Positions 18,128 through 41,650 of a stretch of DNA of 64,000 nt are shown piece by piece. A program made the translations under genes and the position numbers. Numbering within the stretch: position 1 is the first letter of the stretch; each line of letters starts with the position of its first letter. Location: assembly GCA_963756875.1 (NCBI GenBank), contig CAVWPA010000003.1:1-64000 (forward strand). The letters run 5' to 3'. Source of the stretch: an uncultured Verrucomicrobiae bacterium. Lineage in GTDB: Bacteria > Verrucomicrobiota > Verrucomicrobiia > Chthoniobacterales > UBA10450. The notes beneath the pieces are model-generated. The model was not told the origin of the DNA and ran no database searches. It saw only the letters and a program-made list of their open reading frames with translations.

Positions 18128-19006
18128 CTACCGACCGCCGGGAGAGGGCGAAACAGCCGGCCCGGGCGGGTTGTTCTGGGGTTTTGTGGCTGAACTCGAC
18201 GCCTTGGGCGGAGGCGGAGGCGCGCTGGATGTTGCGGCGAGTTCGGCGCGTTCTTTCAACCAGGCCTGATAATCTGCCGGCGTGTCCACGACGAGCGTTC
18301 CTTTCATGCCGTAATGACCGAGCCCGCACAGCTGGCCGCACACGATTTCATAAGTTCCGGTTTTAATTGGCGTAAACCAGACCGGAATCAGCGAGCCCGG
18401 GATGGCGTCGCCAGCGATCCGCATCGCGGGCACGCAGAAGTCGTGGATCACGTCCTTGGAAGAAAGCTGGACGATGACCGGACGATCGATCGGTATGTGC
18501 AGTTCGCCGCTGGTGACGATATCGTCTTTACCGTCCGGATCGTTTGGATCGAGCCCGACCGGATTCGAGGTGCTGACTAAATCCACAGAGCGCCGCCCAA
18601 ACCGGCCATCCGGTCCGGGCAGAAGGAAATTGAAATTGAACTGTTGCGCCACCATGTGAACGAGGACTGCGTTTTTCCCGGGCGGAAATTCATTGACTCG
18701 CTTCGCCCAAAGAGGGATCGCAAAGCCGAGAAGCAGCACCGCCTCGATCAGCACCACTGAGAATTCCAAGTGTGTGGAAATGCCGCTGCGCACGCCTTCA
18801 TGATCGGCACGCGGATGGCGCCCCTTGCGGAAGCGGATTAAAACCACAATGAAAAAAACGGACCACCCAACGAAAAGCGCGCCCATGAACCAATGGGCGA
18901 ATTCCAGGATGTGATCGATCTGGAAGCCGTGCTCCGACGCATTGGGCGGCTGCCCAAGGAACTCGTTGATGAGTGCCAGGCTATTGATCAGCGCCAGACT
19001 ACTCAT
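18128..19006 (-). CDS. coxB: Cytochrome c oxidase subunit II (CuA), no fused cytochrome c
   Basis: DVIHDF, DAIPG and CGQLCGLGHYGM CuA motif; no CxxCH. Confidence 0.92.
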   Translation of the reverse strand: MSSLALINSLALINEFLGQPPNASEHGFQIDHILEFAHWFMGALFVGWSVFFIVVLIRFRKGRHPRADHEGVRSGISTHLEFSVVLIEAVLLLGFAIPLWAKRVNEFPPGKNAVLVHMVAQQFNFNFLLPGPDGRFGRRSVDLVSTSNPVGLDPNDPDGKDDIVTSGELHIPIDRPVIVQLSSKDVIHDFCVPAMRIAGDAIPGSLIPVWFTPIKTGTYEIVCGQLCGLGHYGMKGTLVVDTPADYQAWLKERAELAATSSAPPPPPKASSSATKPQNNPPGPAVSPSPGGR

Positions 19007-19259
19007 ACTTTTCCAGCTCTTCCTCGGTCAATTCCTGGTGCGGCTCGAGCGGCATCCGTCCGTGACGCCAAATATGCAGACTGAACGCGCCGATCCCGCC
19101 GAGGACCGACATCGCAGCGCCAAAGAGAAACCAGATGGCGACCGCCATGTGCTCGGTCGATTTGCCATCCTTGGCGCCGTAGCAAAAGGCGCAGCCCATC
19201 GCCTGGCCAAGGGGCGAGAAGATCGCCAACAACAGAATTGATAAGATTTTAGCTTTCAT
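18999..19259 (-). CDS. Small membrane protein with CxxC in the oxidase operon
   Basis: Signal-like N-terminus, GCAFCYG, one TM. Overlaps both neighbours. Confidence 0.7.
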   Translation of the reverse strand: MKAKILSILLLAIFSPLGQAMGCAFCYGAKDGKSTEHMAVAIWFLFGAAMSVLGGIGAFSLHIWRHGRMPLEPHQELTEEELEKYE

Positions 19260-19465
19260 ACGATGATGCGGAGCCGCTTCATTTTTCGATAGAACCAGAC
19301 GCCGTAAACGACGAGACCGACGGCACAGACAAAAGAGGCGATGGCTCCAGCCAGGAAAACCGGCGCCCCTTCCACCATGTCCACCCAGATGCACCAGGCC
19401 CCGCAACCGAGCGCCAGCAGCGTCGAGAAAACAATAAAAACGATATGGAAACCTTTTAGCGACAT
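19256..19465 (-). CDS. Small two-TM hypothetical protein in the oxidase operon
   Basis: MSLKGFHIVFI..., abutting subunit IV. Confidence 0.75.
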   Translation of the reverse strand: MSLKGFHIVFIVFSTLLALGCGAWCIWVDMVEGAPVFLAGAIASFVCAVGLVVYGVWFYRKMKRLRIIV

Positions 19466-19807
19466 TTAACGGTGGACCGGGTCATACCAGGCAAGAAACG
19501 TAAGCCAAAAAAGTCCAAGCACAAAAAAACCGGTGAAAATCAGGACGCGATAAACGAGACGTTTCTCCGCGGCGAGATGCATGAAAACAGTGGCGACCAG
19601 GCCGGCTTTTAACATCGCCAGCAGCATGGCAACGGCCACATTCGCCTTGCGCGTTCCAAAATCGACGTAGGAAAGCGCGACCGTCAGGGCGGTGAAGGTG
19701 AGCAGGAGTACGCCGACCACTAAATAGCCTTTCACGTGCTTTCGCACGTTATGCGCGTATTCCTCGTGCTCGGCCGGGTCCTGGGAAATATCGGGCGGGT
19801 TGTTCAT
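19466..19807 (-). CDS. coxD: Cytochrome c oxidase subunit IV family protein
   Basis: KAGLVATVFMHL motif, three TMs. Confidence 0.88.
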   Translation of the reverse strand: MNNPPDISQDPAEHEEYAHNVRKHVKGYLVVGVLLLTFTALTVALSYVDFGTRKANVAVAMLLAMLKAGLVATVFMHLAAEKRLVYRVLIFTGFFVLGLFWLTFLAWYDPVHR

Positions 19808-19810
19808 CTG

Positions 19811-20686
19811 TCAGAGTAGATAAAAGAGCGGAAAGACGAAAATCCAGATCAGATCGACAAAATGCCAAAAGAGGCCGGCGACCTCGACACGATTGGCAAG
19901 ATGCTCCGGGTTGCGTTGATAAAGTTTTTTACTGACCGGCAGCCACATGTAAATGAAGACCAGCACCCCGGCCAGAACGTGCAGGCCGTGCAATCCGGTA
20001 ATCGTGAAATAGCTGGCGAAGTAATCGCTGTGCGTCGGCAAAAACATGGTGGCCCGTTCCACGTCCGCTTTCTCGATTTTGGCGATTTTGTCCGTCGGCG
20101 GCCTGTAAAGAAAATGGGGCCGATCCATGGATGGGTTGTCCGGATACGCGTTCACCGGATCGAGCGCGATTTCGTATTCCTTGATGTTGGGATTTTTCAG
20201 GGCCTCGAGATTGTGAAGGTGGCCGGTAATCTCGATGCGCGGCGGAAGCCCTTTCTCCTCCAGGCGATGATTGCCCAGGTAGGGTTCGTATTTTTCCAGA
20301 GCGGCAGGTTTAATGTAAGCGCCGAAGTGCTCGAATTTTTGCGGCCATTCGTAAGCGAGTTTAACGGTCAGGAAGATGATGCCGCACAAAATGGTGGCCA
20401 GCATATACCACCAGTAAGCGCGGTACCGGCGCATTTTCAGCGCGGCCCAGGCCAGGACGACCGTGACCGAAGAGATGATCAGGATGGCGGTGTTCATGGC
20501 CCCGACAGGGACATTGAGCAGGCCGTGCGGCCACGTTCCCGGCGCCGCATCGAGCCGCAGAAAAATGTAAGCGGAGAAGAGACCGCCGAAGAGCATCACT
20601 TCCGAGGCAAGGAAGAGCCAGATGCCGATCTTGGCGTTCCAAAGACCTGTGTCCGGGCGCGTGGAAACTGTGTACGGTATTTCCAT
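19811..20686 (-). CDS. coxC: Cytochrome c oxidase subunit III (short type, with soluble insertion)
   Basis: GIWLFLASEVMLFGGLF, NTAILIISS, TGLHGLHV, FWHFVDLIW. Confidence 0.93.
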   Translation of the reverse strand: MEIPYTVSTRPDTGLWNAKIGIWLFLASEVMLFGGLFSAYIFLRLDAAPGTWPHGLLNVPVGAMNTAILIISSVTVVLAWAALKMRRYRAYWWYMLATILCGIIFLTVKLAYEWPQKFEHFGAYIKPAALEKYEPYLGNHRLEEKGLPPRIEITGHLHNLEALKNPNIKEYEIALDPVNAYPDNPSMDRPHFLYRPPTDKIAKIEKADVERATMFLPTHSDYFASYFTITGLHGLHVLAGVLVFIYMWLPVSKKLYQRNPEHLANRVEVAGLFWHFVDLIWIFVFPLFYLL

Positions 20687-20691
20687 TTGTC

Positions 20692-22572
20692 TCAGGAGGC
20701 CAGAACCGGTTCGGCGACTCTGTGAGGCCTGCGCTCGGACGGCTCTACCGGTTCGTTTTGCATCGTGAAATCGCGGTCCCGTCCCGGAAGGCTGTATTCA
20801 TATGGGCCGCGATAGGCGACCGGCGTCGTGACGAAATTCCCGTGCGGCGGCGGAGAGGGCGCGGTCCACTCGAGCGTGGTGGCTTCCCACGGGTTATCGT
20901 TCACTTTCTTGCCGTGTTTGATGCTCCAGAAGAAATTGATGATGAACGGAATCTGCGCCAGGCCCATGGTCCATGCAGCCCACGAGATTGGCGTATTCCA
21001 TTGGAACCCGCTCAACCCCCAGACGTGCTCGCCGGCAAGCGTCCAGCCCTGGCCTCCATCGTACCAACGGCGGTGCATGCCGAGCATTCCCTGCAAGAAC
21101 ATGGGCAGAAAGATCACGTTCATGCAGATGAGCGAAGGCCAGAAATGCACCTTGCCCCAGAACTCGCTCATCATGCGGCCAGTCGCCTTCGGGAACCAAT
21201 AATAAATCCCCGCGAAAAGCGCGAAGATGGTGCCCGGCGCGACGATATAGTGGAAGTGCGCGATCACGTAGTAGGTGTCGTGGAGATATAAATCGGCCGA
21301 ATTAAACGCGAGCGGGATTCCGGTCAGCCCGCCAATTCCGAACATTGGCAGGAAGGCGGTGGCGAACAGCATCGGCACATTGAAACGAATCGAGCCGCCC
21401 CAGAGCGAAATGAAAAACGCGCTTAGAATGATGACCGACGGAATGGAGATCAGCAGGGTGGTGGTTTGGAAAAACGCGCTGACAGTCGAACCCATCCCGG
21501 TGAGCCACATGTGGTGCGCCCAGACGACGAATGAGAGGAACCCGATCGTGAGCACGGAAAAAACGAGGGACTTGTAACCCCAAAGCGGCTTGCGCGAATT
21601 GTTGGCCAGGATTTCGGCGACGATCCCCATGGCAGGCAGGATGAGCACGTAAACTTCCGGATGTCCGAGGAACCAAAAGAGGTGCTGCCAGAGGATCGGG
21701 CTGCCGCCTCCACTGATGTTGAGCGGCGTTCCATTTACCACCAGACCGCTGGGCAGGAAAAAGCTGGTGCCGGCGACTCGATCCATGATCTGCATGACGA
21801 TTGCGGATTCCAGCGGCGGGAAAGCCAGCAGGAGCAGGAACGCCGTGACGAATTGCGTCCAGACGAAAAACGGCAGCCGCATCCAGGTCAACCCCTTGGC
21901 GCGCAGTTGAATGATTGTGGTAATGAAATTGACCGCGCCGAGCAGCGATGAGCTGATCAGAAAAATAAAGCCGATAAGCCAGAGCGTGGTGCCGTTGAGA
22001 ACTGGAATGAACCCCGGGCCTTTGTCAGCAATCGCGGCCAGAGGCGTGTAGGAAGTCCAACCGCTTTTTGCCGCGCCGCCCGGAACAAAGAAGCTCGAGA
22101 GCATGATCACTCCGCCGACGGCAAAAGCCCAGAAACTGGCCGCGTTTACTTTCGGAAAAGTCATGTCGGGCGCGCCGATTTGCAGGGGAACGACGAAGTT
22201 GCCGAAAGCCGCGAAGGCGACCGGCACGATACCCAGAAAGATCATGATCGTGCCGTGCATGGCACCCAGCGAATTATAAAACTCGGACGTCATTTTCCCG
22301 TCCGGCATGGTGTTCGGCCCAAAGACATGGCCGAGCAGGTTTCCGATCACTGGCAGGGACTCGCCCGGATAGGCCAGTTGCCAGCGCATCAACATCATCA
22401 GGCTGAACCCTAAGAAAAGGAATATCAGGCCGCAGAGGCCGTATTGAATGCCAATTACCTTGTGGTCGGTCGAAAAAATGTATTTCCGCCAAAAACCGAG
22501 CTCATGATGTTCGTGACCGGCGTCGTGTGTGTGAGGATCGTGATCGGTCGCAAGAGAAGCGGAGGCATCCAT
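20692..22572 (-). CDS. coxA: Cytochrome c oxidase subunit I, A1-type, catalytic ligands intact
   Basis: STDHK, MHGTIM, GHPEVY, WAHHM, HDTYYVIAHFHY. Confidence 0.96.
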   Translation of the reverse strand: MDASASLATDHDPHTHDAGHEHHELGFWRKYIFSTDHKVIGIQYGLCGLIFLFLGFSLMMLMRWQLAYPGESLPVIGNLLGHVFGPNTMPDGKMTSEFYNSLGAMHGTIMIFLGIVPVAFAAFGNFVVPLQIGAPDMTFPKVNAASFWAFAVGGVIMLSSFFVPGGAAKSGWTSYTPLAAIADKGPGFIPVLNGTTLWLIGFIFLISSSLLGAVNFITTIIQLRAKGLTWMRLPFFVWTQFVTAFLLLLAFPPLESAIVMQIMDRVAGTSFFLPSGLVVNGTPLNISGGGSPILWQHLFWFLGHPEVYVLILPAMGIVAEILANNSRKPLWGYKSLVFSVLTIGFLSFVVWAHHMWLTGMGSTVSAFFQTTTLLISIPSVIILSAFFISLWGGSIRFNVPMLFATAFLPMFGIGGLTGIPLAFNSADLYLHDTYYVIAHFHYIVAPGTIFALFAGIYYWFPKATGRMMSEFWGKVHFWPSLICMNVIFLPMFLQGMLGMHRRWYDGGQGWTLAGEHVWGLSGFQWNTPISWAAWTMGLAQIPFIINFFWSIKHGKKVNDNPWEATTLEWTAPSPPPHGNFVTTPVAYRGPYEYSLPGRDRDFTMQNEPVEPSERRPHRVAEPVLAS

Positions 22573-23414: not shown

Positions 23415-23519
23415 ACGAATCGTTTGCTCATCGTGTAAATTTTGCCAAAGGCAATCGTTGCCTGGCCTCTCTAACAAGTTATAAAACCCCGTTTAAGCCC
23501 CGCCAGCCGGACAACCCCC

Positions 23520-24503: not shown

Positions 24504-24628
24504 TGCTACTAGTACCAATAAGGATTATCGATTGGCGGTCGTTTCGTCAACGAAAAGACCTGTAAAATGCGTGTCGGAAATCGCCCGGCACGCGTGAGAA
24601 AGTTCCGCTCGCGAGTACATTTGGCCGC

Positions 24629-25687: not shown

Positions 25688-26022
25688 GGCCGGTTCAAAA
25701 ACAACCAGGCGACCAGTGCGAGCGTGCCGACCAAAGCCAGAATGAACAGGATCTGGCGTTTCGTAATCAGCGAGCCGGAGGACTCCGCCGTGGGAAGCGT
25801 TACCTCACCGTTATTTTCAATCACGCTCATCACATCGTCGCAGAGTTTTCGGACGTTTTCGTTTTGTCCGGCCAACTCCTGGCCATTGACGATGATCTTT
25901 CTGCCGACCACGCCGCTCGCAATTGACTTATCCATAGCGGCGCGAACTTCAGGCGGCAGCTGGCCCGGATCGGAATACTCCTCTCCCTTGTACCGGATTT
26001 TCGTCTTGATGTTGACGTTCAT
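25684..26022 (-). CDS. Hypothetical protein with C-terminal TM
   Basis: MNVNIKTKIRYKGEEYSDPGQLPPEVR... The longer ORF-track version overlaps the oxidoreductase and is unlikely. Confidence 0.65.
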   Translation of the reverse strand: MNVNIKTKIRYKGEEYSDPGQLPPEVRAAMDKSIASGVVGRKIIVNGQELAGQNENVRKLCDDVMSVIENNGEVTLPTAESSGSLITKRQILFILALVGTLALVAWLFLNRP

Positions 26023-26130
26023 CGCTTTGCTCCAATCAAAGCATTGGAAAGCATTTCGTCTGCCATTCGGAGCCGGCACGCCGCGGGTGTTCTTGTAATT
26101 CACGGAACGCGGCCAATCTTTGGAAAGGAA

Positions 26131-29135: not shown

Positions 29136-29924
29136 TTAGTTTTGCGGTTTGGGTGGAGCGCCCGGTTTGGGCGGTTCGCCGGGCTTTGCCGCGGGTTGCG
29201 GACCCGCGGCTTCCCCACCGGGAAGCTCGGCAACCGCGGGAACCGCCAGAATGTCCGGCTCAACGTACGACTCTGGATGATCAGCCAGCTCTTTGCGCAA
29301 AGCCGCAATTTGTTCCTTGGTAACCGCACTGGCATGATTACCCCAGGAACTTCGTTCGTAGGTGAGGACATCGGCAATCTTTTGGTCGGTCAATGTCTTG
29401 TCCCACGGCTGCATCACCGCGGTGCCAAATTTCTGGCCCTTTACGGTAACCGGCCCGTGCAAACCTTTGAGGACAATCATGGCCATTCGTCGCGAACCGC
29501 CGGTTGTAAACTCCGAGCCGGCGAGCGGCGGATATTGTCCCGGCACACCAAGCCCGTTGGCTTGATGGCAGGTCTGGCAATTGGCGGAGAAAATCTTTTT
29601 GCCGCGTTCAGCCGACGTGAGTTCGACGGCCGGTCCTCCACCGCCCGGACCGATGGCCGCACCTTTCCTGCTGGGTGGCGGGCCGCCCAGCGGATCCAGG
29701 CTGTCGCCGCTAAAACTTCCCGAGTACCGTCCGAGGTAAGCGCCGCCGAAAAAGATTGCGAGCCCGTAAACGACGATCAACCACATCGAAAGCGGTTCAA
29801 GGCCGACACGCGGCTCGCGTTTTTCGCGCTGAATTGCAGCGTGCACCTCCTGCACGTCGGCGGTTTCGCCGTAGTCCGTCCCCTGGCGTCTAAGCGATGA
29901 TGGATCGAAAGGCTGACCGTTCAT
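29136..29924 (-). CDS. Membrane-anchored monoheme cytochrome c
   Basis: One TM, CQTCH, YPPLAGS, Met in AVMQPW, YERSSWGN. ATG overlaps the ccoO-like stop (ATGA). Confidence 0.9.
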   Translation of the reverse strand: MNGQPFDPSSLRRQGTDYGETADVQEVHAAIQREKREPRVGLEPLSMWLIVVYGLAIFFGGAYLGRYSGSFSGDSLDPLGGPPPSRKGAAIGPGGGGPAVELTSAERGKKIFSANCQTCHQANGLGVPGQYPPLAGSEFTTGGSRRMAMIVLKGLHGPVTVKGQKFGTAVMQPWDKTLTDQKIADVLTYERSSWGNHASAVTKEQIAALRKELADHPESYVEPDILAVPAVAELPGGEAAGPQPAAKPGEPPKPGAPPKPQN

Positions 29925-30826
29925 TTCGCTTTCGCTCCTTTCGGTGCTGCGGGCGATGCAGCCGGTGCAGCGGCGGGCGACCCGGCAGGAGCCGCCGCCG
30001 GTCCGGGCGCCGTCTTCACTTCGTTGAGCGGGTGCGATTGATTGAGGGACATTAAATACGCGACGAGGCATTTCGCGTCGTATGTGGGAACAATTTCCCA
30101 ACCAGCGGGCGGAGCATCGGAACCGGTGAGATCGAGCGCGTCATTGGAACGCTCGCCATCGATATGGCGCTTCTCGTAAAGGAACCGGTACGCCGGCATG
30201 TCCGAATCAACATAGAAACTGCGCGGCGAATAAAGATGCAGATGTTGCCACGCAGCGGAGTACTTTGGCGGGCTACCGGGTGTCGATTGGATTTGAGGAG
30301 GCGTCGCCACCGGGGCCGGGGCCTTTGCGGCAGGGGGCGAAGCCTTCGCGGCCGAAGTTGGAGCTTTCGCGGCAGGAGCTGGAGCTTTCGCGGCGGGAGA
30401 TGCGGCAACCGGCGACCCAGCCGGACTGGGGGCTACCGATGGCGCCGGACTTTCTTCTTCAGCCGGCGCGCGTTGGCCGATGTTCGCCAGATCCTGGCCG
30501 ACTCGTTCCTTTCCAAGAAGAACCGGACGCGCAAAAATGTAATCACGCGGAGCGCTGCGGCGCTCGCCCCATTTGCGCTCAATATCCGGGCCGGCATAAT
30601 CGGCGCGAACCTGCTCGCTATGACAATAGACGCAGCCGTTCGCGGTATAGACATGTCGGCCGCGCTCGACCATTCCCGATTGCGGCATTGGATAAATGTC
30701 AGTGCCCTCTTCGTCCGACTGCGGTTCGAGATGCCCGATCTGGAAATTTGGAATCACTGTCAAGCCGACCCAGGAGAAGGCGAACGTTCCGAAAAGTCCG
30801 ATCAAAAGCGAAAATAGACCTTTCAT
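29921..30826 (-). CDS. cbb3-type subunit II (CcoO/FixO)-like monoheme cytochrome c with Pro/Ala insertion
   Basis: GRHVY..NGCVYCHSEQVR, RVGQDLANIG, HLYSPR, SDMPAY. Confidence 0.88.
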   Translation of the reverse strand: MKGLFSLLIGLFGTFAFSWVGLTVIPNFQIGHLEPQSDEEGTDIYPMPQSGMVERGRHVYTANGCVYCHSEQVRADYAGPDIERKWGERRSAPRDYIFARPVLLGKERVGQDLANIGQRAPAEEESPAPSVAPSPAGSPVAASPAAKAPAPAAKAPTSAAKASPPAAKAPAPVATPPQIQSTPGSPPKYSAAWQHLHLYSPRSFYVDSDMPAYRFLYEKRHIDGERSNDALDLTGSDAPPAGWEIVPTYDAKCLVAYLMSLNQSHPLNEVKTAPGPAAAPAGSPAAAPAASPAAPKGAKAK

Positions 30827-32310
30827 AAGTGTCCCTCGGTTCCCTCCGCCTCAACCGGGTTTAGAAAAGTCGGCACGCTCGAAGTACGGCCCAGACCGAA
30901 AAGCATCAGACCAAAATGGAACGCGAAAACAAAGTGCGACACCGTGAGCAAAAGTCCGGAAAGCGTGCGCCCGCGCAGGTATGGCAGGACGCTTTGCGTG
31001 CTTTCGATGAACGGGAGCGTGGGGTCATTCATGCTTGAGCCTTGTGCAATACCGCCAAACAGCAGCATCAGCGTCATCAGGCCGATGCCATAGGCCGCCG
31101 ACCAAAAATGCAACTTAATCAAAGTGGCATAACGCCATTCGCACGCGACCAGCCGCGGGACGATGTAGTACATCGATCCAAACATCACCATGGTGAAGAA
31201 CGCGTACAGGCCGAGATGCGAGTACGCGATGCTCACTTCGGTGAAATGCAGATACTGTGCGACCGAACGGAGCGACATGAGAATGCCCAACACGCTGAAA
31301 ACCGTGTACCACATCGCGCCGAAGACCGTGAACCGCAGGGTCGGACTGTAGCGCATCACAGGAAAATAACCCTGCATGGTCATGTGATGATTGAGGCCGA
31401 CCGTGGCCACGGGAATGATGGTCAGGATGGTCGCGGCGATGCTCGCGGTGATCATCCAGGCCGGAAACGGTCCGTCGACCAGGCGTTGCATACCGGTCCA
31501 GCTCGCGAAAAGCGCATAGGTCCAAAATCCAATCGTTGCGAGGTGATAACTGTAGACCGGCCGGCCGATTACCTTGGGAATCATGTAATAGGCCGTGCCG
31601 AGCCCGATCGCGCCGAACCAAAGAAAGAGAAGGTTGTTTGCGTACCACCAGCCCACCGCAGCCTGCAGAACGCCCTGGACCGGAACCACGAAAAGCATCA
31701 GTTGCGCAGCGGCGTAAAGCCACGGGAACCAAAGAAACGCGCCGAGCAAATACCATTGGGTAATATAGATTTGGTCGCCCCGACGGAAACGGAACATCAA
31801 AACAGCCCATGAAATGATGAGCGTGTAAGCGACGAAGAGAACGATCGCTGCATAAGGCGGGAACTCGAGCCATTGGAAGCCGGTGCTGTCGCCAAGTAAA
31901 ATCCCGCCGACGCCCAGCAATACGCCGAGGTTCCAAAAGCAAGCGCCGGTAACCAGCAACAGTGGACGCCGCAAAGTAGTGCGGCACAACCGGGCCATGA
32001 GCCAGATCGCGGTGCCCATCCCCGCCATCGAGGCCCACCCATACACCATCACGTTCATGTGCACAGGACGCAGCCGGCCCCACGTGAGAAAGCTCACGTT
32101 CGAAAGCCAGTCGGGCGAATGCATCTTGAACGAAACGAACCCGGCCAGAACCGTCCCGATAAGAAGCCAGACGATTGCCGACGCATAGAACATCAGCACC
32201 GGCACTCGCGTCGAGGCATCGATCAATGCCCGTTCCAACTGCTCGGCGTCGCCGGCAGCGGCGGAAACCGACGGCGCTTTGAGCGGTATGTCAGCTGCAG
32301 TCGCGTTCAT
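30823..32310 (-). CDS. cbb3-type subunit I (CcoN/FixN)-like protein lacking the CuB and heme b3 ligands
   Basis: WGRLRPVH, WWYANN, YYMIPK...PVYSY, WTGMQRL and HFTEVSIAYSH align to CcoN motifs, with substitutions at the catalytic His positions. Confidence 0.88.
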   Translation of the reverse strand: MNATAADIPLKAPSVSAAAGDAEQLERALIDASTRVPVLMFYASAIVWLLIGTVLAGFVSFKMHSPDWLSNVSFLTWGRLRPVHMNVMVYGWASMAGMGTAIWLMARLCRTTLRRPLLLVTGACFWNLGVLLGVGGILLGDSTGFQWLEFPPYAAIVLFVAYTLIISWAVLMFRFRRGDQIYITQWYLLGAFLWFPWLYAAAQLMLFVVPVQGVLQAAVGWWYANNLLFLWFGAIGLGTAYYMIPKVIGRPVYSYHLATIGFWTYALFASWTGMQRLVDGPFPAWMITASIAATILTIIPVATVGLNHHMTMQGYFPVMRYSPTLRFTVFGAMWYTVFSVLGILMSLRSVAQYLHFTEVSIAYSHLGLYAFFTMVMFGSMYYIVPRLVACEWRYATLIKLHFWSAAYGIGLMTLMLLFGGIAQGSSMNDPTLPFIESTQSVLPYLRGRTLSGLLLTVSHFVFAFHFGLMLFGLGRTSSVPTFLNPVEAEGTEGHL

Positions 32311-32359
32311 TGGAGGCTGGCAAGATTGGCGTCTTCAAGTTGAATTGAGGTCGAAATTT

Positions 32360-32908
32360 TCATGGTGTTTTCGCTGGAGCCGGTGGCACTGACACGGCCG
32401 GCGAGGGCGATAAAATCGGCGCAGTCGAAGCCGGCGCTTGCGGCGGTGCCGCTGGGGAGGGCGACACAGGCGGCTTTACGGCAGGAGGGGGCAGCGGGCT
32501 GCTTGTAGCGGTTGTTTGCGGAGATACGGCCGGAGATGCTGCCGGCGCTGCTGTGACGGACGGTTGCGGCGGTGGTGTGGCGATCGGATAGGCCGGCTCC
32601 GGTTTTTTATTGGCCAGTTCCGCGATGGTCAGTTCAATCGCGTGCGATATTGGAATTCGCACGACGCCCTTCTTCTTGTCCATCCAACCGTAGGTGGTGA
32701 GCGTTTTCGCATTTTCCTCGCGCAACGCCTTGAGTTTCTGTTCGCGATTTTTAGCACGAGTTTGTTCGTATGTGTCGCCGCGCGGCGTGGGACCGATGAC
32801 CGCCAGCACGATCACGCCAAAAATCACAAACAGCAGCACAACACCCAGCCACGTGGAAAACGGCGCGGGCGATTGAACAGCCTGGCGAGTGGATTCGAAA
32901 TCGTTCAT
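32360..32908 (-). CDS. ActG-like single-TM accessory subunit of ACIII
   Basis: One TM, YGWMDKKKGVVRIPI..A motif, Pro-rich tail. Lies directly after actF. Confidence 0.6.
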   Translation of the reverse strand: MNDFESTRQAVQSPAPFSTWLGVVLLFVIFGVIVLAVIGPTPRGDTYEQTRAKNREQKLKALREENAKTLTTYGWMDKKKGVVRIPISHAIELTIAELANKKPEPAYPIATPPPQPSVTAAPAASPAVSPQTTATSSPLPPPAVKPPVSPSPAAPPQAPASTAPILSPSPAVSVPPAPAKTP

Positions 32909-32909
32909 G

Positions 32910-34112
32910 TCAGTTCACCAATTTTAACGATTCGATCAGACGCGGATCGCGCACGGGAAAGAGCGACGTCCTGGGAAGAATGCGCAGATAAACAAAGGTG
33001 AGTGTCGCGCCGATGGCGATGGGGGCGATAAAATCCCAGACGCTCAGATGCACGCCAGTGCCGTGGAACGCAGGCAGAATGACGATGTACATGTCGAGCA
33101 ACTGCATGAAGACGATCCACGCAGCGACGTAAGCGAGCTGGTGGGGATGTTTCTTGATAGAGCGCAACAACAGAATGGCGAACGGGCCGAAGAACCGCCC
33201 GATTACCAGGAGCATGGTCAGCCACCACCAGGACTGCGTGTTCCGGGCGAGGAAAAATTGCGTCTCTTCCGGCATGTTCGCGTACCAGATGAGCATGTAC
33301 TGGCCGAATCCGATGTAGGCCCAGAAAACGGTGAAGGCGAACATCCATTTTCCCATGATGTGATAGTGCTCCACTGTGACGACTTCTTTTAAGTACCCGG
33401 CGCGGCGGAGCGCAGTAATGACAAGAACGAGGAGCGCCATCGAGCTGCCGGCCGTGCCGGCGAAGATGTAAACGCCGAACATGGTGGAAAACCAGTGATA
33501 GTTAAGGCTCATCAGCCAATCGAACGCGCCAAACGTGAGACAAAGGGCAAACGCCGGCAGACTCGCGAACGCCACCTGGCGCATGCGGATCGTGCATCGC
33601 GGGTTCCCATCCTTATCCTGCCGCACGGAGAAGCGCCGGAGCAATTGCGAAGCGATGATGAAAAAGCCCAGGAAAAAGACCGCGCGCCCGAGAAAGAAAT
33701 CCCAATTCAGATAAGCCCGTTTGGAATCAAGATTTGCTTCCTTGCCCGGCGGAATGTTCATCCATTCGTAAAGATGATGCCGGAGGAGAAGAATCGGGAT
33801 AAACAAAACCGCGAGCACCGCGATCAGGACAGCGATGTTTTCCAGCTGACGGCGCACCACCACCGACCACTCCGCATCGGTGGCGTGGTGAACGATTGTC
33901 CAGAAAAAACAACCGGCGCACAGGGTGAAATAAAAGGCAAACGCGAAGAGCCATGAAAAACCGAATTGGGCCGGTTCGATGGCCGCGCCGACACCGCAGA
34001 GCGCCAAAGCCACCAACGCGATCAACCCGACCAGCACGGAAAGCCCGGCGAAGCGGCTCCTTTCAAAATACTCGCCTTCCGGCGTCGGCAATGGCTGCGA
34101 ACGGTCGCTCAT
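32910..34112 (-). CDS. actF: Alternative complex III subunit ActF
   Basis: WSVVVRR, DWLMSL..HWFSTMFG, FWAYIGFGQYMLIWYANMPEE. Confidence 0.9.
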   Translation of the reverse strand: MSDRSQPLPTPEGEYFERSRFAGLSVLVGLIALVALALCGVGAAIEPAQFGFSWLFAFAFYFTLCAGCFFWTIVHHATDAEWSVVVRRQLENIAVLIAVLAVLFIPILLLRHHLYEWMNIPPGKEANLDSKRAYLNWDFFLGRAVFFLGFFIIASQLLRRFSVRQDKDGNPRCTIRMRQVAFASLPAFALCLTFGAFDWLMSLNYHWFSTMFGVYIFAGTAGSSMALLVLVITALRRAGYLKEVVTVEHYHIMGKWMFAFTVFWAYIGFGQYMLIWYANMPEETQFFLARNTQSWWWLTMLLVIGRFFGPFAILLLRSIKKHPHQLAYVAAWIVFMQLLDMYIVILPAFHGTGVHLSVWDFIAPIAIGATLTFVYLRILPRTSLFPVRDPRLIESLKLVN

Positions 34113-34816
34113 TTCTTTTCCTTCTCCAAGTCAGCCCGGTGTTCGGGCGGGACATCGACAATGGCCGCGTGCTGACTGCGTTGCAGGGCACGCAAGTAAG
34201 AGATGATCGCCCAGCGATCCTCGACCATGAGATTCGAGCCGTAAGCCATCATGGTGTTTTTCCCGTGCGTGATGGTGTTAAAAATTTCGCCGTCGGCCAT
34301 GTTCCGAATCCGATCGTCCTGCAAGCTCACCACCGTCGCGAGCCCGTATTGTTTCGTAATGCCGTTCCCTTCGGCCGTCGCGCCGTGACACATGACGCAA
34401 GTGATGTTGAAGCGCTGCTGGCCGCGTTCCAATAGTTCCGGAGTCACCGGGACCGGAATGCCGGTACCCCAGTCGTTGCCCATCCTGCCGGTATCGTAGT
34501 AATCCGTGCCAACGCTGAATCCGATGGCCCCCTGTGCTTCACGAACTGGCACCGGTGCCGGAGGCGTGGCGATTGCCTTCGGCTTCGGCATTTCGTAACC
34601 CATCGGCTCCGTGCCGGGGACAGGTTCGCGAGATCCCCGGGAGTCGGCAAAGAAGTTTAACGGCGCTTGTGCGTTCACTCTCATCTGCCGCACCATGTCG
34701 GGAAACACCTCCAACGGCGCGCCGGTGCTCTTTTGTCCGCGAAACCCGAACACTGCGATAACCGCAATCGTGAACAAAACAAAAATGAGCAGGAAGCCGC
34801 GCAACAGCATATTCAA
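34109..34816 (-). CDS. actE: Alternative complex III monoheme cytochrome c ActE
   Basis: FPDM..Q, FFAD, PVPGT, CVMCHG, DGEIFNTITHG, DRWAI. Confidence 0.9.
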   Translation of the reverse strand: MNMLLRGFLLIFVLFTIAVIAVFGFRGQKSTGAPLEVFPDMVRQMRVNAQAPLNFFADSRGSREPVPGTEPMGYEMPKPKAIATPPAPVPVREAQGAIGFSVGTDYYDTGRMGNDWGTGIPVPVTPELLERGQQRFNITCVMCHGATAEGNGITKQYGLATVVSLQDDRIRNMADGEIFNTITHGKNTMMAYGSNLMVEDRWAIISYLRALQRSQHAAIVDVPPEHRADLEKEKK

Positions 34817-35363
34817 TCCTCGTGCACGATGGTGATGTGCTCGCCGCCGCTTTTCTCAAGCAACTCGCGGGCTTCAATCTCAGTGAAACGCGGATCGCGC
34901 GCTTCGATCACCAGGAAAAATCCGTCGTTGGTTACGCGGCTGAAACGGTCCCAGTTAAACATCGGATGATGCGGACGCGGCAGGCCGTTCATGACCAGCA
35001 CCGCGAAAAACGCGGCAAAAGCCGAAAAGAGAATGGTGGCCTCGAACATGATCGGGAAAAAAGCCGGGACGGTGAAAAAATTTGTCGGCTTGCCGTGCAC
35101 ATCGAGGGGGTAAAGGTACGACGACGGGCCAAATTCGATCAGCGCGGCGGTGAGCAGCCCCGAGATTCCTCCGGCCAGCACGACGGCACTCAGCCACGAT
35201 TTTCCCAGTCCCATTGCTTCGTCCATTCCGTGGATGGGGAAAGGCGAATGCACGTCCCAGCGTTTAAAACCAGCGTCGCGCACCGTCTTGGCCGCCTGGT
35301 AGAGCGCGGCTGCGCTCGGATATTCGGCAGCCATCCCGTAAACCTTGTGACCGGCGGGCGTTC

Positions 35364-35367
<4 letters not shown>
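34813..35367 (-). CDS. actD: Alternative complex III subunit ActD (DUF3341)
   Basis: [38 protein letters not shown]. Confidence 0.92.
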
Positions 35368-36824
<1,457 letters not shown>

Positions 36825-37036: not shown

Positions 37037-40000
37037 TCATGCCTTTTTCTCCGGGCTGGCCACGCCGATATTTGCCGCATCGGGCATTTTGGGATTGGGA
37101 TTGCGAATTCGGGCGAGATAGCTGGCGCGTGTATTCACGTTCAAATATTCGAGCAGCCGATAATTGCGGTCTTGTTTCTTCATCTTCGAGACCTCGGTCT
37201 CCGGATCGGCGACGTCGCCAAACACAAGCGCCTGCGTCGGGCAGGCCTGCGCGCATGCAGTCGTGAACGAATCGCGTGGAATCAGCGTCTTGTCCGAAGG
37301 GCCGGCCCGCCTGTGTGCGGCAATTTTCGCTTCCTCGATGCGTTGCACGCAGAACGTGCATTTCTCCATCACGCCGCGCATGCGCACCGTCACGTTCGGA
37401 TTTTTCTGCATCTTCACGATATCGGGCGCGCCCTTGGTCGTTAACGGCGCGAAGTATTCCTCATAGATGCCGAACTCGCCGGCGATTTTCTTTTTGCCCA
37501 CCGGCCGCTGGTTGTAATCGAAAAAGTTGAACCGGCGCACTTTGAACGGGCAATTGTTCAGGCAATAGCGCGTGCCGATACAGCGGTTGTAGACCATCAC
37601 ATTGAGGCCATCCTCGCTATGAACAGTCGCGTTCACAGGGCAGACGGTTTCGCATGGCGCGTTCTCGCAATGCTGGCACATCATCGGTTCGTGCACGATC
37701 TCCGGGTTTTCCGGCCAGTCGCCGTTGTCTTCGTCGAATGGCTTCGCGCTCGCGTAATAACGGTCGATTCGGATCCAATGCATGGCGCGGCCGTGCGCGA
37801 CCTGCAATTTGCCGACCACCGGGATGTTGTTCTCCGCCTGGCAGGCGATCACGCAGGCGCTGCAGCCGGTGCAAACGTTGAGATCTACGGACATTCCCCA
37901 CTGCTGCGGCGCGGTCAGCGGCGGATGCGTATAGAGCGTCGGTAACTTCGCTTCAGAAACCTGGACGGCCGAGAGTTTCTTCGCGAACTCGTTGTCTTCG
38001 CGATATTTGTCCAGCGTCGCCTCCCGCACCAGACCGCGGCCTTCGATGCTCCAGTGGTCCTGCGTGACCGAAAGCGCGTATTTTTTTCCAACCTTCGTCA
38101 CTCGCACCGCTTCGATCTCCTTGCCGTCGGCCACGACGAAATGCGGATTCGTAGCCGTGCGCAGAAGATACGCGTCGAACCCGCCGCGCCTGGTCAACTT
38201 TGTCTTGGTCCGCACTCCGCCACCCGCGTAAGGAAGGAAGTCCGATCCCGGCATTTTCCGGCCGTACCCCAGCGGAATCGTAACCGAATTCTCGGCGTGC
38301 CCGGGGCAAACCAGGGCGGCGATCACCAGCTCGCGCAGGATTGGTTTTCCTTTCGGATCGCGCGCGGTATCGGTAATCGCGACCTGAACGAGGTCGCCGC
38401 TTTCCACATTCAAGCGCTTGGCAAAATTAGGGCTCATGATCGCCCCGTTGTCCCAGGTCAGTTTCGTGATCGGATCGGGCAATTCCTGGAGCCAGCCATT
38501 ATTGCTGTAGCGGCCATCATCTATCCCATAGCTGCGTACAAAGACGATCTCGGGAGATTCCGCGGCCGCCGGCGGCGCCGACGTCCAGAATTGCTGAGCA
38601 AAATCGCCGGTAGCGTTCGCATTGAAAGTCGCCGTCCGATCCTCCGGTGAAACATGTCCCGCAAATCCGTCGCGCAGGAAAATCGACCAGGCAGTTGCGA
38701 AATCACCGGGAGGATTGGTGGCGCGAAATGTTTCCTGGACAAGCTCGGGCCCCTGCACTTTCGGGCCTCCCGCCAGCGCGTTCATCAATTCGATTTCACT
38801 TAACCCGCCAAAAAGCGGGAGAATCATCGGCTGGATCGACAGGTAGCTTCCATCGGCAGCCAGCGCGTCACCCCACGATTCGAGGAAATGCGCAGCCGGA
38901 ACATGCCAGCTGCTCAGCTCGGAAGTGGCGTCCTCGTGATAACCGAGTCGCACCACCTCGGGCACTTTCTTCTGCAAATCGGCCCAATCAATCGGTTGTT
39001 TGGTTTCAGGATCCACCGCCACTCCGCGCGGCGCATTGAACACAGGGTCGCCGCCAAAAATGAACAGCTGTTTGATCCGGCCCGCCCGAATCTCTTCCGC
39101 GAGTTGCAGGATGCTTTTTGTGTTCGGATTGCGCGGAGATTCGCGAAAAACGATGGTGCGGCCCAGGTTTTTCAGCGCGGAATTGATGCCATAAACCAGC
39201 AGTTGCACCACCACCGGCTGGTGCGAGCCGGCAACCACCAGGCTAGCTCCGCTTTTGCTCACCAGATCGTTGACCGCTTCAATCAGCCATTTCTCATCGA
39301 ACGAGGCCACGCTCGCCGGCGCCGTCATCTTTCCCAGCAACGAAAACAAACTCGAGTCCTGGGTCGCGGCCGCGATTTTTCCCGCCAGCAAATAGGCGAA
39401 CGCGGGAATCTGGCTCGCCGGCAAACGCAACCGGTGATCGGCCATCGCGCCGGTGACGCTAAAACGATTTTCCACCACGTAGAGACGGTTCATGGTCTCC
39501 CTGGCCGAACGAATGCGCCGCCGTGATGTAAAGCCGCGCACCGCCGCCAGATCGCCTTCCCCGCAATCGAGGAAATCGCTATCGAGCGACATCACGACGT
39601 CTGCGCGCTCAAAATGTGGAATCAGCCGCAGGTTATCGCCGAAACTAATGCGCGTAGCGTAGCTCTGAGCGTCGCTGAGCGCGGGCTCGTAAGCGCACCA
39701 AATCATTTTTGGAAAAGCTTTTTCCAGACTCGCCCGCAACCTCTCTCGCGTCGGCGAGTCAGTCTCTTCAACCAGGAAAGCGAGGCCATCGCCGCCTTCG
39801 CCAGCCATCTTTCCGCGCAGCGTTTCAATGTAAGCGTCAAACTGCGCGCGATCGGAAGTCTCGCCTTTGTGCACGAAAAAGCGCGACCGGTATGGATCGT
39901 AAAGATCGAGCACCGTTGCCTGGGCAAAGGCATCGGTGGCGCCGTTGCTGGCAGGATGAAGCGGATTGCCTTCCAGTTTGGTTGGACGGCCATCGACCGT

Positions 40001-40343
40001 TGTGGCAACGAGCGGAATCGCACCCGTGCGCCGCGGCATGGCTGTCGCGTAATAGAGAAATTTTCCGGGAATCGTCCACTCGGCGCTTTTACTAAACGGC
40101 ACCAGGTGCGCTTCCGGCCGGCGGCAACTGGTCAGGCCAACTCCCGCCAGCGCCATCGATGCTCCCATCAATCTCAAGAAATCGCGCCGCGACCACTCGT
40201 CCCCCTGCAGCTCAGATGCGCCCGCTGGAAACTCGCGCTCGAGCCATTCGCGAAATTCCGGCGTGTTGCTGAATTCACCGAGACTGCGCCAGGTACTTTT
40301 TGCCGCTGGACGACTCGGGCGGATGTTGAACGACGCGTTTCAT
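37037..40343 (-). CDS. actB: Alternative complex III subunit ActB (Tat-exported molybdopterin-like + Fe-S), +1 frameshift near 40292
   Basis: Removing one base gives MKRVVQHPPESSSGKKYWRSL...EFP...SRRDFL (Tat)...LTSC. Also KLEGNPLHP, CTGCSACVIAC, CQHCENAPCETVCP, CIGTRYC.NNCP, EKCTFC. Span is 3n+1. Confidence 0.93.
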
Positions 40344-40509: not shown

Positions 40510-41235
40510 TCATCGGTGGCATCCCTGGCAATTGGTTGGCGGCTTGATGTTCCATTTCTCCTTCAATGTTTGCCCAATCTCCTTTTGCGTAAGTTCCTTT
40601 TTCTTCGACCAGTCTCCTCTCGCCTCTTTGGGCTGCCCGTATTTCGCGACGAACTCCGCCGGCTTCACGTCGCTTGTTTTCCAATCGAGATTGAAAACCT
40701 GGTCGTCCGGCCGCAAGAAATTTTCCGGGTGCCGGTGGCATCCGAGGCACCACGCCATGCTGAGCGGCTGGGCGTCGTAAACCACCGGCATGCGATTCAC
40801 CGGCCCGTGGCAGCTAAAGCAGCTGATCCCGCGATTCACATGAATCGAGTGGTTAAAAAAAACGTAATCAGGCGTGCGATGGATTTGCACCCAGCTGATT
40901 GGCTGGCCTGATTTCCAGCTGGCACGCACCGGCTCAAGCTTCGGATTCTCTTTTTGAACCTGGCTGTGGCAGTTCATACACGTTTGCGTGTTCGGCAAAT
41001 TGGAATGCGCGGCGACTTCCACAAAGCTGTGGCAATAACGGCAATCCATCCCCAGTTGGTTCACGTGAATATCGTGTGGGAAAGGCACCGGCTGGACCGG
41101 CTGGTAACCGACTTTCGTGTACTTCGGCGTCACGTAGTACCAGGTGGCCCCTATCGCGGCGCAGCCGATGATGGTGCCGGCCACGGTCATTTGCAGCGGC
41201 AGCCAATTGGTCCAGCGTGGGAAAAAATTTGCCAT
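40510..41235 (-). CDS. actA: Alternative complex III pentaheme cytochrome c ActA
   Basis: One TM, QPVPFPH, five CxxCH (CRYCH, CMNCH, CFSCH, CLGCH, CQGCH). Confidence 0.95.
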   Translation of the reverse strand: MANFFPRWTNWLPLQMTVAGTIIGCAAIGATWYYVTPKYTKVGYQPVQPVPFPHDIHVNQLGMDCRYCHSFVEVAAHSNLPNTQTCMNCHSQVQKENPKLEPVRASWKSGQPISWVQIHRTPDYVFFNHSIHVNRGISCFSCHGPVNRMPVVYDAQPLSMAWCLGCHRHPENFLRPDDQVFNLDWKTSDVKPAEFVAKYGQPKEARGDWSKKKELTQKEIGQTLKEKWNIKPPTNCQGCHR

Positions 41236-41650
41236 AGAAATCAGCGGACGCCCTGGCTGCCTGGCCGCCAATCTAAAAACGAATCAAGATTAAGATTAGA
41301 ATGTGCCGGATTCAGACGGTGCAAAGGTTGAGGTTGTCGCTCGTCCGAGGGGAGGGCAGAACTCTATAAATGCACAGAACGCTGGCAAAAGAAAATTCGT
41401 CGCGCAATTTCATGTCGATCTGAAGCCAATTGGCCACGTTGTTCGATACAGAAAAGTGGCGATTTGGCAAAACTGATCACGTCAAAAGTTCATCGCACCG
41501 TCAAGTGAAAGCGCGTTTTTATCCGTAATTTCTTCCCCGGTCCGATTCACCGAGATTGCGCGCAATGAAGGCCATTAAGGGACACGCTCTGTCGTGTCCG
41601 AAATTTTTTGGGCGTCGACCGCGCGGCACTCCCCACTTCCGCGGCCAGGC

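Follow-up and report, generated by a model that had tools for sequence, protein, structure and literature searches.

The CcoN-like gene that is the subject of this analysis lies in a window of 64,000 nucleotides (positions 1 to 64,000 of contig CAVWPA010000003.1, assembly GCA_963756875.1) from an uncultured Verrucomicrobiae bacterium, a soil bacterium, and all of the genes of the window described below are on the minus strand. The gene (30823..32310) is an unbroken reading frame of 495 residues whose product has a 12-helix haem-copper-oxidase fold; an earlier note made from the letters of the sequence had described this frame as intact, which it is, although the note did not give the strand. 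The next gene (29921..30826) encodes a CcoO/FixO-like monohaem cytochrome c of 301 residues (PF02433 FixO, E 2.9e-17), which keeps the motif CVYCH (residues 65-69) and a Met-Pro motif (M210 P211) and has a family-specific Ala/Pro-rich insert (approximately residues 125-190) and a C-terminal tail. The position of CcoP is taken by a membrane-anchored monohaem cytochrome c of 262 residues (29136..29924, motif CQTCH), whose start is an ATG that overlaps the stop of the FixO-like gene, while the list of open reading frames has a longer TTG frame extending to 30101.

Upstream of the CcoN-like gene, on the same strand, is the actABCDEF set of alternative complex III (ACIII). Profile matches identified the multihaem cytochrome c ActA (40510..41271), the NrfD-like quinol-binding membrane subunit ActC (35364..36824) and the monohaem cytochrome c ActE (34109..34816), and ActB (37037..40177), the Fe-S subunit of 1046 residues, was recognized by its Fe-S domains and ActD (34813..35367) by its match to PF11821 (E 2.4e-56). 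The polytopic membrane subunit ActF (400 residues, 32910..34112) had no Pfam match and was assigned by its position, its weak similarity to ActC and its similarity across 13 loci. A 182-residue protein, p182 (32360..32908), has a single membrane helix at its N terminus and a tail rich in Pro and Ala, and sequence searches of Pfam, NCBIfam and the PDB gave it no match of note. Its gene separates actF from ccoN in 12 of the 13 fetched loci with assembled upstream DNA. The order actABCDEF-p182-ccoN-ccoO-cytochrome c was found in 13/13 such loci, whether their CcoN was canonical or ligand-deficient. A look-up of RNA data covering 29136-34112 listed none.

The window also holds an intact A-family (aa3) oxidase (18128..22572), with CoxI (20692-22572, His ligands visible), CoxIII (19811-20686) and CoxII (18128-19006, with a CuA motif and without CxxCH). 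These genes are approximately 6.5 kb from the cco-like genes, with unrelated genes between them, unlike the arrangement in several relatives. The aa3 enzyme is the only intact O2 reductase that we found in the genome, which is 87.6% complete; the B-family oxidase gene is frameshifted, and searches of the genome at this completeness found no cytochrome bd, second cbb3 or CcoG. Contig 3 encodes two additional small class I cytochromes c at 390.9-391.8 kb, and the idea that the CcoO-like module is the only cytochrome c available was dropped on that account.

Replacement of catalytic ligands in a maintained gene

The CcoN-like protein was aligned by phmmer with Pseudomonas stutzeri CcoN (3mk7_A, E 3.6e-41), its residues 38-465 falling onto residues 14-454, and each ligand position could be mapped from this alignment. 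Both haem b histidines are kept, as H84 (=H60), the last residue of the motif RPVH, and H365 (=H347). All three CuB histidines are replaced, H207 by N225 (in WWYANN, residues 221-226), H257 by Q275 and H258 by R276, as are the cross-link tyrosine, Y251, by A269 (A269, Q275 and R276 all being in ASWTGMQRL, residues 269-277) and the proximal histidine of haem b3, H345, by Y363 (in IAYSH, residues 361-365). The P. stutzeri numbering used in the earlier note, the spacings of 50 and 88 residues that it gave, and its description of five catalytic residues lost with the two haem b histidines present were all upheld by the alignment. Judged by these residues, the protein has lost the oxygen-reducing chemistry of CcoN, the ligands for copper and haem b3 being gone. 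It matches Pfam COX1 (E 1.7e-57) and scores 163.9 bits against the ccoN equivalog TIGR00780 of NCBIfam, below the cut-off of 583.15; despite this, source databases label its close homologs "cbb3-type cytochrome c oxidase subunit I," which is the miscall that the note had foreseen from automated annotation.

The binuclear-centre ligands are absent from all 120 close homologs, none of which retains a CuB or haem b3 histidine, and from all 22 family loci (query included). N225 occurs in 120/120 homologs, and Q275 and Y363 each in 119/120. Among the 22 family loci, N225 is present in every one, positions 275 and 276 are each the same in 21, position 363 is Y in 20, F in one and W in one (the F in one genus and the W in another), and position 269 is A, S or G. 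Because the same replacements are found in the 120 homologs and the 22 family loci, chance, strain-specific decay and read error are ruled out. The median pairwise omega was 0.098 (174 of 190 pairs with dS <2), with a dS of at least 1.0 in every pair, and since this value is accompanied by a conserved operon and a confident fold model, we conclude that selection maintains the gene and that it is not in decay. Three family genomes (G009, G014, and G022) seemed to be without the gene; in these actC is approximately 2.7-4.7 kb from a contig end, leaving room only for actDEF, and the absence is an assembly break.

Changes outside the ligands were identified at positions where 13 or all of 14 canonical sequences agree and the family differs. 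In addition to the five ligand positions, these include T233G, S258A, E146Q, F77W, S294T, and T360S, and two conservative changes, V183I and L265Y, while 48 scaffold positions are unchanged between the family and the 14 canonical sequences. The first three correspond to P. stutzeri T215 (T in 13/14 canonical sequences), S240 (S in 13/14) and E122 (E in 14/14), where the query has G233, A258, and Q146; we take T215 and S240 to belong to the proton channel and E122 to the Ca site. Within the family, the 71 canonical-invariant positions have a median of 0 changes, with exceptions at H355 (22 changes), H365 (21), E146 (18), H84 (16), and R448 (13). The replaced positions N225, Q275, and Y363 have 0, 2, and 3 changes, respectively, and the median column has 2.

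An AF2 model of the protein (pLDDT 91.6) superimposed on 3mk7_A in Foldseek with TM scores of 0.86/0.91 and an rmsd of 2.2 Å, a confident CcoN-type fold. When the family-conserved histidines were placed on the model topology, no alternative His triad was found in the periplasmic half. The others conserved in the family (256, 308, 309, 401, 459, and 465) are predicted to lie toward the cytoplasmic ends of the helices, and H308/H309 and H401 are also found in canonical relatives; the substitute histidines that the note had considered as a means of completing a CuB site thus appear to be absent from the periplasmic half of the model.

Canonical and ligand-less relatives in the same operon

The query protein has the same 12-helix fold, bis-His haem b positions and CcoO-type haem c partner as P. 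stutzeri CcoN (3MK7/5DJQ), from which it differs in being without the CuB histidines, the cross-link Tyr and the haem b3 His and in the replacement of the Ca-site Glu and the channel Thr/Ser. Much nearer comparisons come from its own order. The canonical ACIII-linked CcoN proteins of other families (L027-L034, L044), at 49-55% identity, occupy the same operon position and likewise have the HH pair at 308/309, but unlike the query they keep all seven ligand residues; six have ccoS directly upstream, and their CcoO proteins (203-211 residues) are without the Ala/Pro-rich insert of the query family. Conversely, the fully ligand-less CcoN-like proteins found beside ACIII in the same phylum (L039-L043, L073-L082, and most of P0121-P0270) are encoded in the same operon and have the same loss of the binuclear centre and the same conserved scaffold residues as the query, with the Q/T-R/K pair at 275/276 common to the query and the nearest of them; in contrast to the query they lack at least one of the two haem b histidines as well. 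As nine fully canonical and five fully ligand-less order-mates share this operon, the query family seems to stand at a halfway stage, with canonical CcoN on one side and the fully cofactor-less forms on the other. The state in which the binuclear centre is gone and both haem b histidines are kept was found in the query family and otherwise only in the representative P0141.

In a FastTree tree, a single clade (SH-like 97) held 139 of the 142 ligand-deficient rows, and the backbone of a quick IQ-TREE tree of 50 rows was unresolved. The AU test rejected neither a clade of the family with the canonical order-mates (p 0.44) nor a clade of all deficient rows (p 0.53), and consequently neither a single nor a repeated loss of the ligands is favored.

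Loss of ccoS, the gene for the cofactor-insertion and maturation factor CcoS, accompanies loss of the ligands. FixS/CcoS was identified in 6 of 41 related genomes, and all six have a canonical CcoN with the gene directly upstream of ccoN, whereas CcoS (PF03597) was found in 0/25 family genomes (the query genome G000, 87.6% complete, and 24 others) and in 0/5 fully ligand-deficient order-mates. In the laboratory, a cofactor-less CcoN scaffold has a precedent in the Rhodobacter capsulatus ccoS mutant, in which CcoNOQP is reported to assemble without the CcoN cofactors and to be inactive (Koch 2000; Kulajta 2006; both as cited in PMC8267372), although this is a mutant phenotype in which the CcoN ligands are all present and not an evolved state. 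The literature that we covered, chiefly papers outside subscription journals, yielded no description of a ligand-less ACIII-linked CcoN.

Possible roles of the retained protein body

The CcoN-like and FixO-like proteins were modeled as a complex with a score of 0.88 (the best of three controls being 0.00). This passes a mark that 116 of 157 solved complexes attain, as do 2 of 215 mismatched pairs, although the pass may reflect likeness to, or memory of, solved cbb3 complexes. The runs had at least 92% of contacts in common, with a partner pLDDT of at least 66. Of the 34 positions that are near-invariant in the wider ligand-deficient family, 12 fall within the predicted interface of 80 residues (Fisher p 0.008). 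The haem motifs are strictly kept in both cytochrome c partners, and in the FixO-like partner C-x-Y-C-H and Met-Pro are present in every family locus in which the whole gene was captured.

We consider the gene to be a probable descendant of the order's ACIII-linked cbb3 oxidase, whose O2 chemistry would have gone with the CuB ligands, the cross-link Tyr and the haem b3 ligand, the proton channel and the Ca site being degraded and no CcoS having been found in the family genomes. Selection would then be keeping the 12-helix membrane body and a docking surface for the CcoO-like cytochrome c, which still appears to bind haem, and together with the adjoining anchored cytochrome c the module would probably form a membrane-held cytochrome c station that passes electrons from ACIII towards the aa3 oxidase. 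Rather than a high-affinity oxidase, the protein is probably a carrier that supports cytochromes c structurally. We infer, with the balance tipping modestly in favor of this more specific reading, that it is a non-catalytic scaffold for the haem c subunit, in a module relaying ACIII electrons towards aa3, and that its haem b site is dispensable; the bis-His site is still in the query sequence and may be occupied, the family suggesting that it can be dispensed with. The earlier note had proposed a repurposed haem-copper-oxidase fold as opposed to decay. Of this, the maintenance of the gene without its O2-reducing centre is supported; the two haem b histidines as a firm feature and a Tyr-ligated haem are not.

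Several observations run against the scaffold and relay proposal. A relay is not required, in that ActE or ActA could reduce the carrier directly; the genome has two more small class I cytochromes c at another site; and the aa3 genes are not adjacent in the window. N225 and Q275 show a degree of conservation that a pure filler would not need. In addition, the haem b site may be functional and not vestigial, both histidines being kept in 16 of the 21 assessable family genomes.

This last point leads to a reading that we regard as doubtful and yet deserving of real weight, namely that the protein is a working one-haem electron-transfer protein, in which haem b on H84 and H365 would take electrons from the CcoO-like haem c and serve as a relay or buffer, which would account for the retention of the two histidines; this corresponds to the electron relay of the earlier note. 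The retention in 16/21 genomes has persisted at dS values of at least 1, and among the close homologs H84 is present in 100/120, H365 in 97/120 and both in 93/120. Across 138 members, both histidines are present in 106, neither in 19 and one only in 13, and thus joint loss is commoner than single loss. R81 is found in 106/106 members with both histidines and in 26/32 of those without, and S360, like R81, is released only where a haem b histidine is lost; R448 was counted with them, yet it is present in 96/106 members with both histidines (17/32 without). The co-variation of R81 and R448 points to a haem b site maintained as a unit. Nevertheless, by number of changes position 84 is 58th and position 365 is 30th among 461 columns, the 32/138 members without at least one of the histidines keep intact genes, CcoS was not found in any of the 25 family genomes, and a haem b would be without an onward acceptor once haem b3 and CuB were gone. 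The joint loss of H84 and H365 is suggestive only, because the independent-pairs test of their coupling had just four supported pairs (three the same way, none opposite; median p 0.25). Although the earlier note had treated the two histidines as a kept feature, approximately one fifth of the family has lost them, and they belong to the fastest-changing of its formerly invariant positions.

An unlikely role, in our view, is that of a supercomplex adaptor, in which the CcoN body would be kept mainly to dock ACIII to aa3 or to act as an assembly platform, and not for electron transfer through its own cytochromes. Such a role would suit the position of the genes, which always follow actF/p182 and have the aa3 cluster beyond them, within the fetched stretch, in 10 of 14 fetched loci, and supercomplex structures have been determined for cbb3 as well as for ACIII (structure titles; PMC8552683). 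The strict retention of the haem motifs in both cytochrome c partners, however, points to electron transfer, and in the query window aa3 is not adjacent.

We give less credence still to a new catalytic site, in which a second haem on Tyr363 would face a polar distal pocket formed by R276, Q275, and N225 and carry out chemistry other than O2 reduction, on peroxide, NO or an anion for instance. The haem-b-retaining branch would in that case be a new, copper-free enzyme facing the periplasm, with electrons passing from ACIII through the CcoO-like haem c and haem b to the Tyr363 haem, which we judge just as improbable; we know of no haem-copper-oxidase relative with copper-free chemistry on peroxide, NO or an oxyanion. 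N225, Q275, and Y363 are stable within the family, these three and R276 are all polar and in place of former metal ligands, and Arg/Lys at 276 recurs in the nearest ligand-deficient relatives. Against this, one genus of the family has F at position 363 and another has W, and in the nearest relatives with Q/T-R/K at 275/276 the residue at 363 is Q, L, F or M, a variability that counts against the Tyr-ligated haem suggested in the earlier note. Conservation at these positions does not exceed that of the median column. The Glu of the Ca site, which in cbb3 links both haems, has been replaced at a position that varies within the family, the proton channel has lost T215 and S240, and the family genomes gave no CcoS.

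The idea of a decaying pseudogene or sequencing artefact, for which one might cite the splitting of the gene between two frames in 2/22 family loci (G008 and G015) and the frameshift in the genome's B-family oxidase gene, has next to no probability given the intact frame in the query and in 20/22 family loci, an omega of approximately 0.1, 183 of 495 columns invariant across the 120 homologs and replacements that are identical across genera.

In genome and metagenome studies, "cbb3 oxidase" genes are taken as evidence of high-affinity microaerobic respiration, and the query gene cannot serve in this way. Of 151 genomes sampled evenly across the phylum, 31 carry an ACIII-linked CcoN, and in 12 of these it is ligand-deficient. 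One order has, in one operon, three states of the same gene (canonical, binuclear-centre-less with the haem b ligands, and fully ligand-less), which constitute a natural series in which to study the passage of a respiratory enzyme to a non-catalytic subunit and the need that the cell may have for the body that remains.

Ligand loss in an intact CcoN-like protein and across its family

The CcoN-like gene (window 30823-32310, minus strand) is an unbroken open reading frame of 495 aa with a Pfam COX1 match (E 1.7e-57), and its top match in a phmmer search of all PDB chains was Pseudomonas stutzeri CcoN (3mk7_A, E 3.6e-41). The alignment pairs H84 with P. stutzeri H60, N225 with H207, A269 with Y251, Q275/R276 with H257/H258, Y363 with H345 and H365 with H347, which bears out the motif positions and residue pairing of the earlier note and confirms its observation that an intact CcoN-like frame has lost the ligands of the binuclear centre; the interpretation placed on that observation is supported in part. 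Structure prediction gave a confident AlphaFold2 model from an alignment of 125 homologues (pLDDT 91.6, pTM 0.92, twelve long helices), to which the closest structure was again 3mk7_A (TM 0.86/0.91, rmsd 2.2 Å).

A search of 41 related genomes found the gene in 21 of the 24 from the same family (UBA10450). No match was obtained in G009, G014 and G022, where the contig carrying the genes of alternative complex III (ACIII) stops just beyond actC-F. In these fragmented assemblies (G009:C27, G014:C54, G022:C86) the break falls no more than about 2.7 kb past actC, near low-complexity genes, and Ala/Pro-rich stretches may impede assembly and cause the ccoN-like gene to be missed in MAGs. The binuclear-centre ligands are absent from all 22 family loci, a count that includes the query and two unpublished genomes (G002 and G007): N225 occurs in 22, Q275 in 21 and R276 in 21, and position 363 is Tyr in 20, Phe once and Trp once. 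The codons of the four replaced histidines (AAY, CAR, CGN and TAY) are each one nucleotide from a His codon. In 120 clusters of close homologues (identity 84-100%, query included), N225 is found in 120, Q275 in 119, Y363 in 119 and R276 in 103. The gene is under purifying selection: for 20 family genes compared at 460 codon columns, without the two that are frame-broken, the median pairwise Nei-Gojobori omega is 0.098 (174 of 190 pairs, those with dS < 2; the value is approximate, as the smallest pairwise dS of 1.0 puts synonymous sites near saturation). Both the conservation of the N/QR/Y substitutions and the dN/dS below 1 that the earlier note looked for were thus found, and its contention that this is not decay holds: ligands gone from every family locus and an omega this low do not describe a strain-level accident. 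In two genomes the match to the gene is divided into two segments that differ in frame (G008:C1:1647248-1648721 and G015:C119:1643-3058); these may be pseudogenes or assembly errors.

When 14 canonical sequences (all seven ligand residues kept) were compared with 20 family sequences, 13 positions were identical in at least 13 of the 14 canonical sequences but had a different family consensus. These are the ligand changes H225N, Y269A, H275Q, H276R and H363Y, together with T233G, S258A, E146Q, F77W, S294T, T360S, V183I and L265Y. T233, S258 and E146 align in 3mk7_A with T215, S240 and E122 of P. stutzeri CcoN, which we take to be proton-channel and Ca-site residues. Another 48 positions are kept in both groups. 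Inside the family (138 rows), parsimony gives a median of 0 changes for the 71 positions that are invariant in canonical sequences, the fast-changing exceptions being H355 (22 changes), H365 (21), T357 (19), E146 (18), G452 (18), H84 (16) and R448 (13).

Retention of the haem b histidines, advanced earlier as a kept feature, is true of the query (H84, H365) but is not secure in the family. Of the 120 close homologues, 100 have H84 and 97 have H365; 16 of 21 assessable family genomes retain both, and the two columns rank 58th and 30th, respectively, of 461 for changes (median 2 per column). The joint states in 138 rows (both histidines 106, neither 19, one only 13), and the tracking of these states by R81 (106/106 members with both, 26/32 lacking at least one), R448 (96/106 and 17/32) and S360 (99/106 and 16/32), are evidence that, where it persists, the haem b site forms a genuine unit, although relatedness inflates these co-variation tables; an independent-pairs test gave 4 supported pairs, 3 the same way and none opposite (median p 0.25). 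In our reading the query protein probably still forms this site, and the family pattern shows that the role for which the protein is retained is independent of it.

Three states of ccoN in one order

A homologue is present in 14 of 16 genomes of the same order (Chthoniobacterales) outside the query's family. Nine of these 14 order-mates have the full canonical HHYHHHH at the seven positions, and five have lost nearly all ligands, including one or both haem b histidines. All 14 fetched loci (each up to 19 kb) share the gene order ccoN-ccoO-cytochrome c; ACIII lies upstream in all 13 loci with assembled upstream DNA, a gene for a 182-aa protein was detected in 12 of those 13, and in 10 of 14 the fetched DNA also includes aa3 CoxI. 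Of 151 genomes sampled evenly from the phylum, 31 have ACIII-linked CcoN (E <= 1e-60), all of them in a single taxonomic class; 19 are canonical and 12 ligand-deficient, and within this sample the loss of the binuclear centre with both haem b histidines kept was confined to the query's family. Deficient forms are many and diverse, since only 6 of 150 representatives of the 50%-identity clusters nearest the query, with the columns covered, have the full ligand set.

In a FastTree phylogeny rooted on fused CcoNO sequences the canonical forms are basal and 139 of 142 deficient rows form one clade (SH-like 97). An IQ-TREE analysis of 50 rows left the backbone unresolved, AU tests rejecting neither arrangement; in it the family groups (SH-aLRT 89, unstarred) with deficient sequences that have Q/T/N then R/K at 275/276. 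This grouping hints that the binuclear centre may have been lost before the family arose.

Matches to PF03597 (FixS/CcoS) were found in six of the 41 related genomes, all with canonical CcoN, in each case on the strand of ccoN, 100-250 bases ahead of it and inside the ACIII-cbb3 operon (G035:C280:8260-8391, G038:C3:50883-51002, G026:C10:2137-2250, G040:C119:15747-15860, G027:C3:201564-201656 and G036:C68:29359-29448). None was found in the query's own genome (G000, 87.6% complete), the 24 family genomes or the five fully deficient order-mates. Three canonical genomes also gave no match, and the contigs of two of them end inside ccoN. In the window the gap between the 182-aa gene and the ccoN-like start is only 49 bases. 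PMC8267372 reports that CcoNOQP is still assembled, as an inactive complex, when CcoS is missing.

An additional ccoNO fusion gene is present in five order-mates (G027:C10, G025:C101, G040:C87, G035:C254 and G031:C11), with open frames of 810-866 aa that are 26-28% identical to the query, the full ligand set in the three translated, and a FixG-like gene a few kb downstream. FixG_C was detected only beside this fused operon and not above cut-off in the query's family; the operon itself was not found in G000.

The CcoO-like partner, the operon and a proposed role

ActA, ActB, ActC, ActD, ActE and ActF of ACIII are encoded upstream of the query on the same strand, followed by the 182-aa membrane protein (window 32360-32908, minus strand), for which Pfam and NCBIfam gave no family and the PDB no meaningful sequence match. 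It has a single helix, is conserved in its place between actF and ccoN, and may be a so far overlooked subunit of either ACIII or the cco module. Downstream lie a FixO/CcoO-like monohaem cytochrome c (window 29921-30826, minus strand), with CVYCH and Met-Pro kept, and an anchored monohaem cytochrome c. The C-x-Y-C-H and Met-Pro motifs are retained in every family locus with the whole CcoO-like gene captured, and the protein has gained an Ala/Pro-rich insert, measuring 273-394 aa in the family versus 203-211 aa in canonical relatives. Across loci L006-L026 this low-complexity Ala/Pro/Ser-rich insert ranges from almost none (locus L013) to about 200 aa (L020), and a C-terminal tail of this kind is also present; both are lacking in canonical order-mates. 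Comparable tails occur on the anchored cytochrome c and the 182-aa protein.

The predicted complex of the CcoN-like and CcoO-like proteins scored 0.88 (best of three controls 0.00), passing a mark that 116 of 157 solved complexes attain, against 2 of 215 mismatched pairs, with at least 92% of contacts agreeing between runs and partner pLDDT of at least 66; because cbb3 complexes are solved, resemblance to them may be all that this pass shows. Of the 34 positions near-invariant in the wider family, 12 lie in the predicted interface of 80 residues (Fisher p 0.008), including G78, R79, W186, W222, W263 and G273, which fits a docking surface as what selection preserves.

Three haem-copper-oxidase loci were identified in G000 (2.69 Mb, 3 contigs): the query gene, an aa3 oxidase and a B-family gene with one frame switch; cytochrome bd was not found in this 87.6% complete assembly. 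The B-family subunit I (contig 1, 382950-384303) is split over two overlapping frames (ORFs L003 1444-2529 and 2090-3151), the single switch lying at about L003 2195-2205 in a non-homopolymer stretch; this reflects a true frameshift or else a fault of the assembly. The subunit II encoded upstream of it combines a cupredoxin with a cytochrome c. The intact aa3 oxidase, further along the query's strand, comprises CoxI (His ligands visible in translation), CoxIII, CoxII and haem A synthesis genes. About 6.5 kb of unrelated genes lie between it and the cco-like genes (window 22710-29103), among them ORFs resembling a histidine phosphatase and, on the plus strand, a FAD/Fe-S oxidase (1019 aa), as well as genes for a DinB-type polymerase and a membrane protein rich in Pro. 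This is unlike several order-mates, where aa3 genes follow within about 1 kb.

We infer that the non-catalytic CcoN body would keep the CcoO-like cytochrome c membrane-bound next to ACIII, the two forming with the anchored cytochrome c a station towards the aa3 oxidase, whose CoxII is of the CuA type, without CxxCH or a haem c domain. Counting against this role are the two other small cytochromes c in G000 and the fact that aa3 is not adjacent to the cco-like genes in the window.

Close homologues are labelled "cbb3-type cytochrome c oxidase subunit I" at source. Phylum genome papers mention ACIII-adjacent "cbb3 oxidase" genes, their ligands uncommented in the sections available (PMC6688271, PMC13608581), and the accessible part of a superfamily survey (PMC11214002) lists families without the active-site Tyr, none of them the query's. 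The literature searched, which did not extend to subscription papers on ACIII gene clusters, held no description of a ligand-less ACIII-linked CcoN. New in this analysis are the intermediate state, with the binuclear centre gone and the haem b histidines kept, the order-mates with a canonical ccoN in this operon, the loss of ccoS alongside the ligands and the evidence for a dispensable haem b site.
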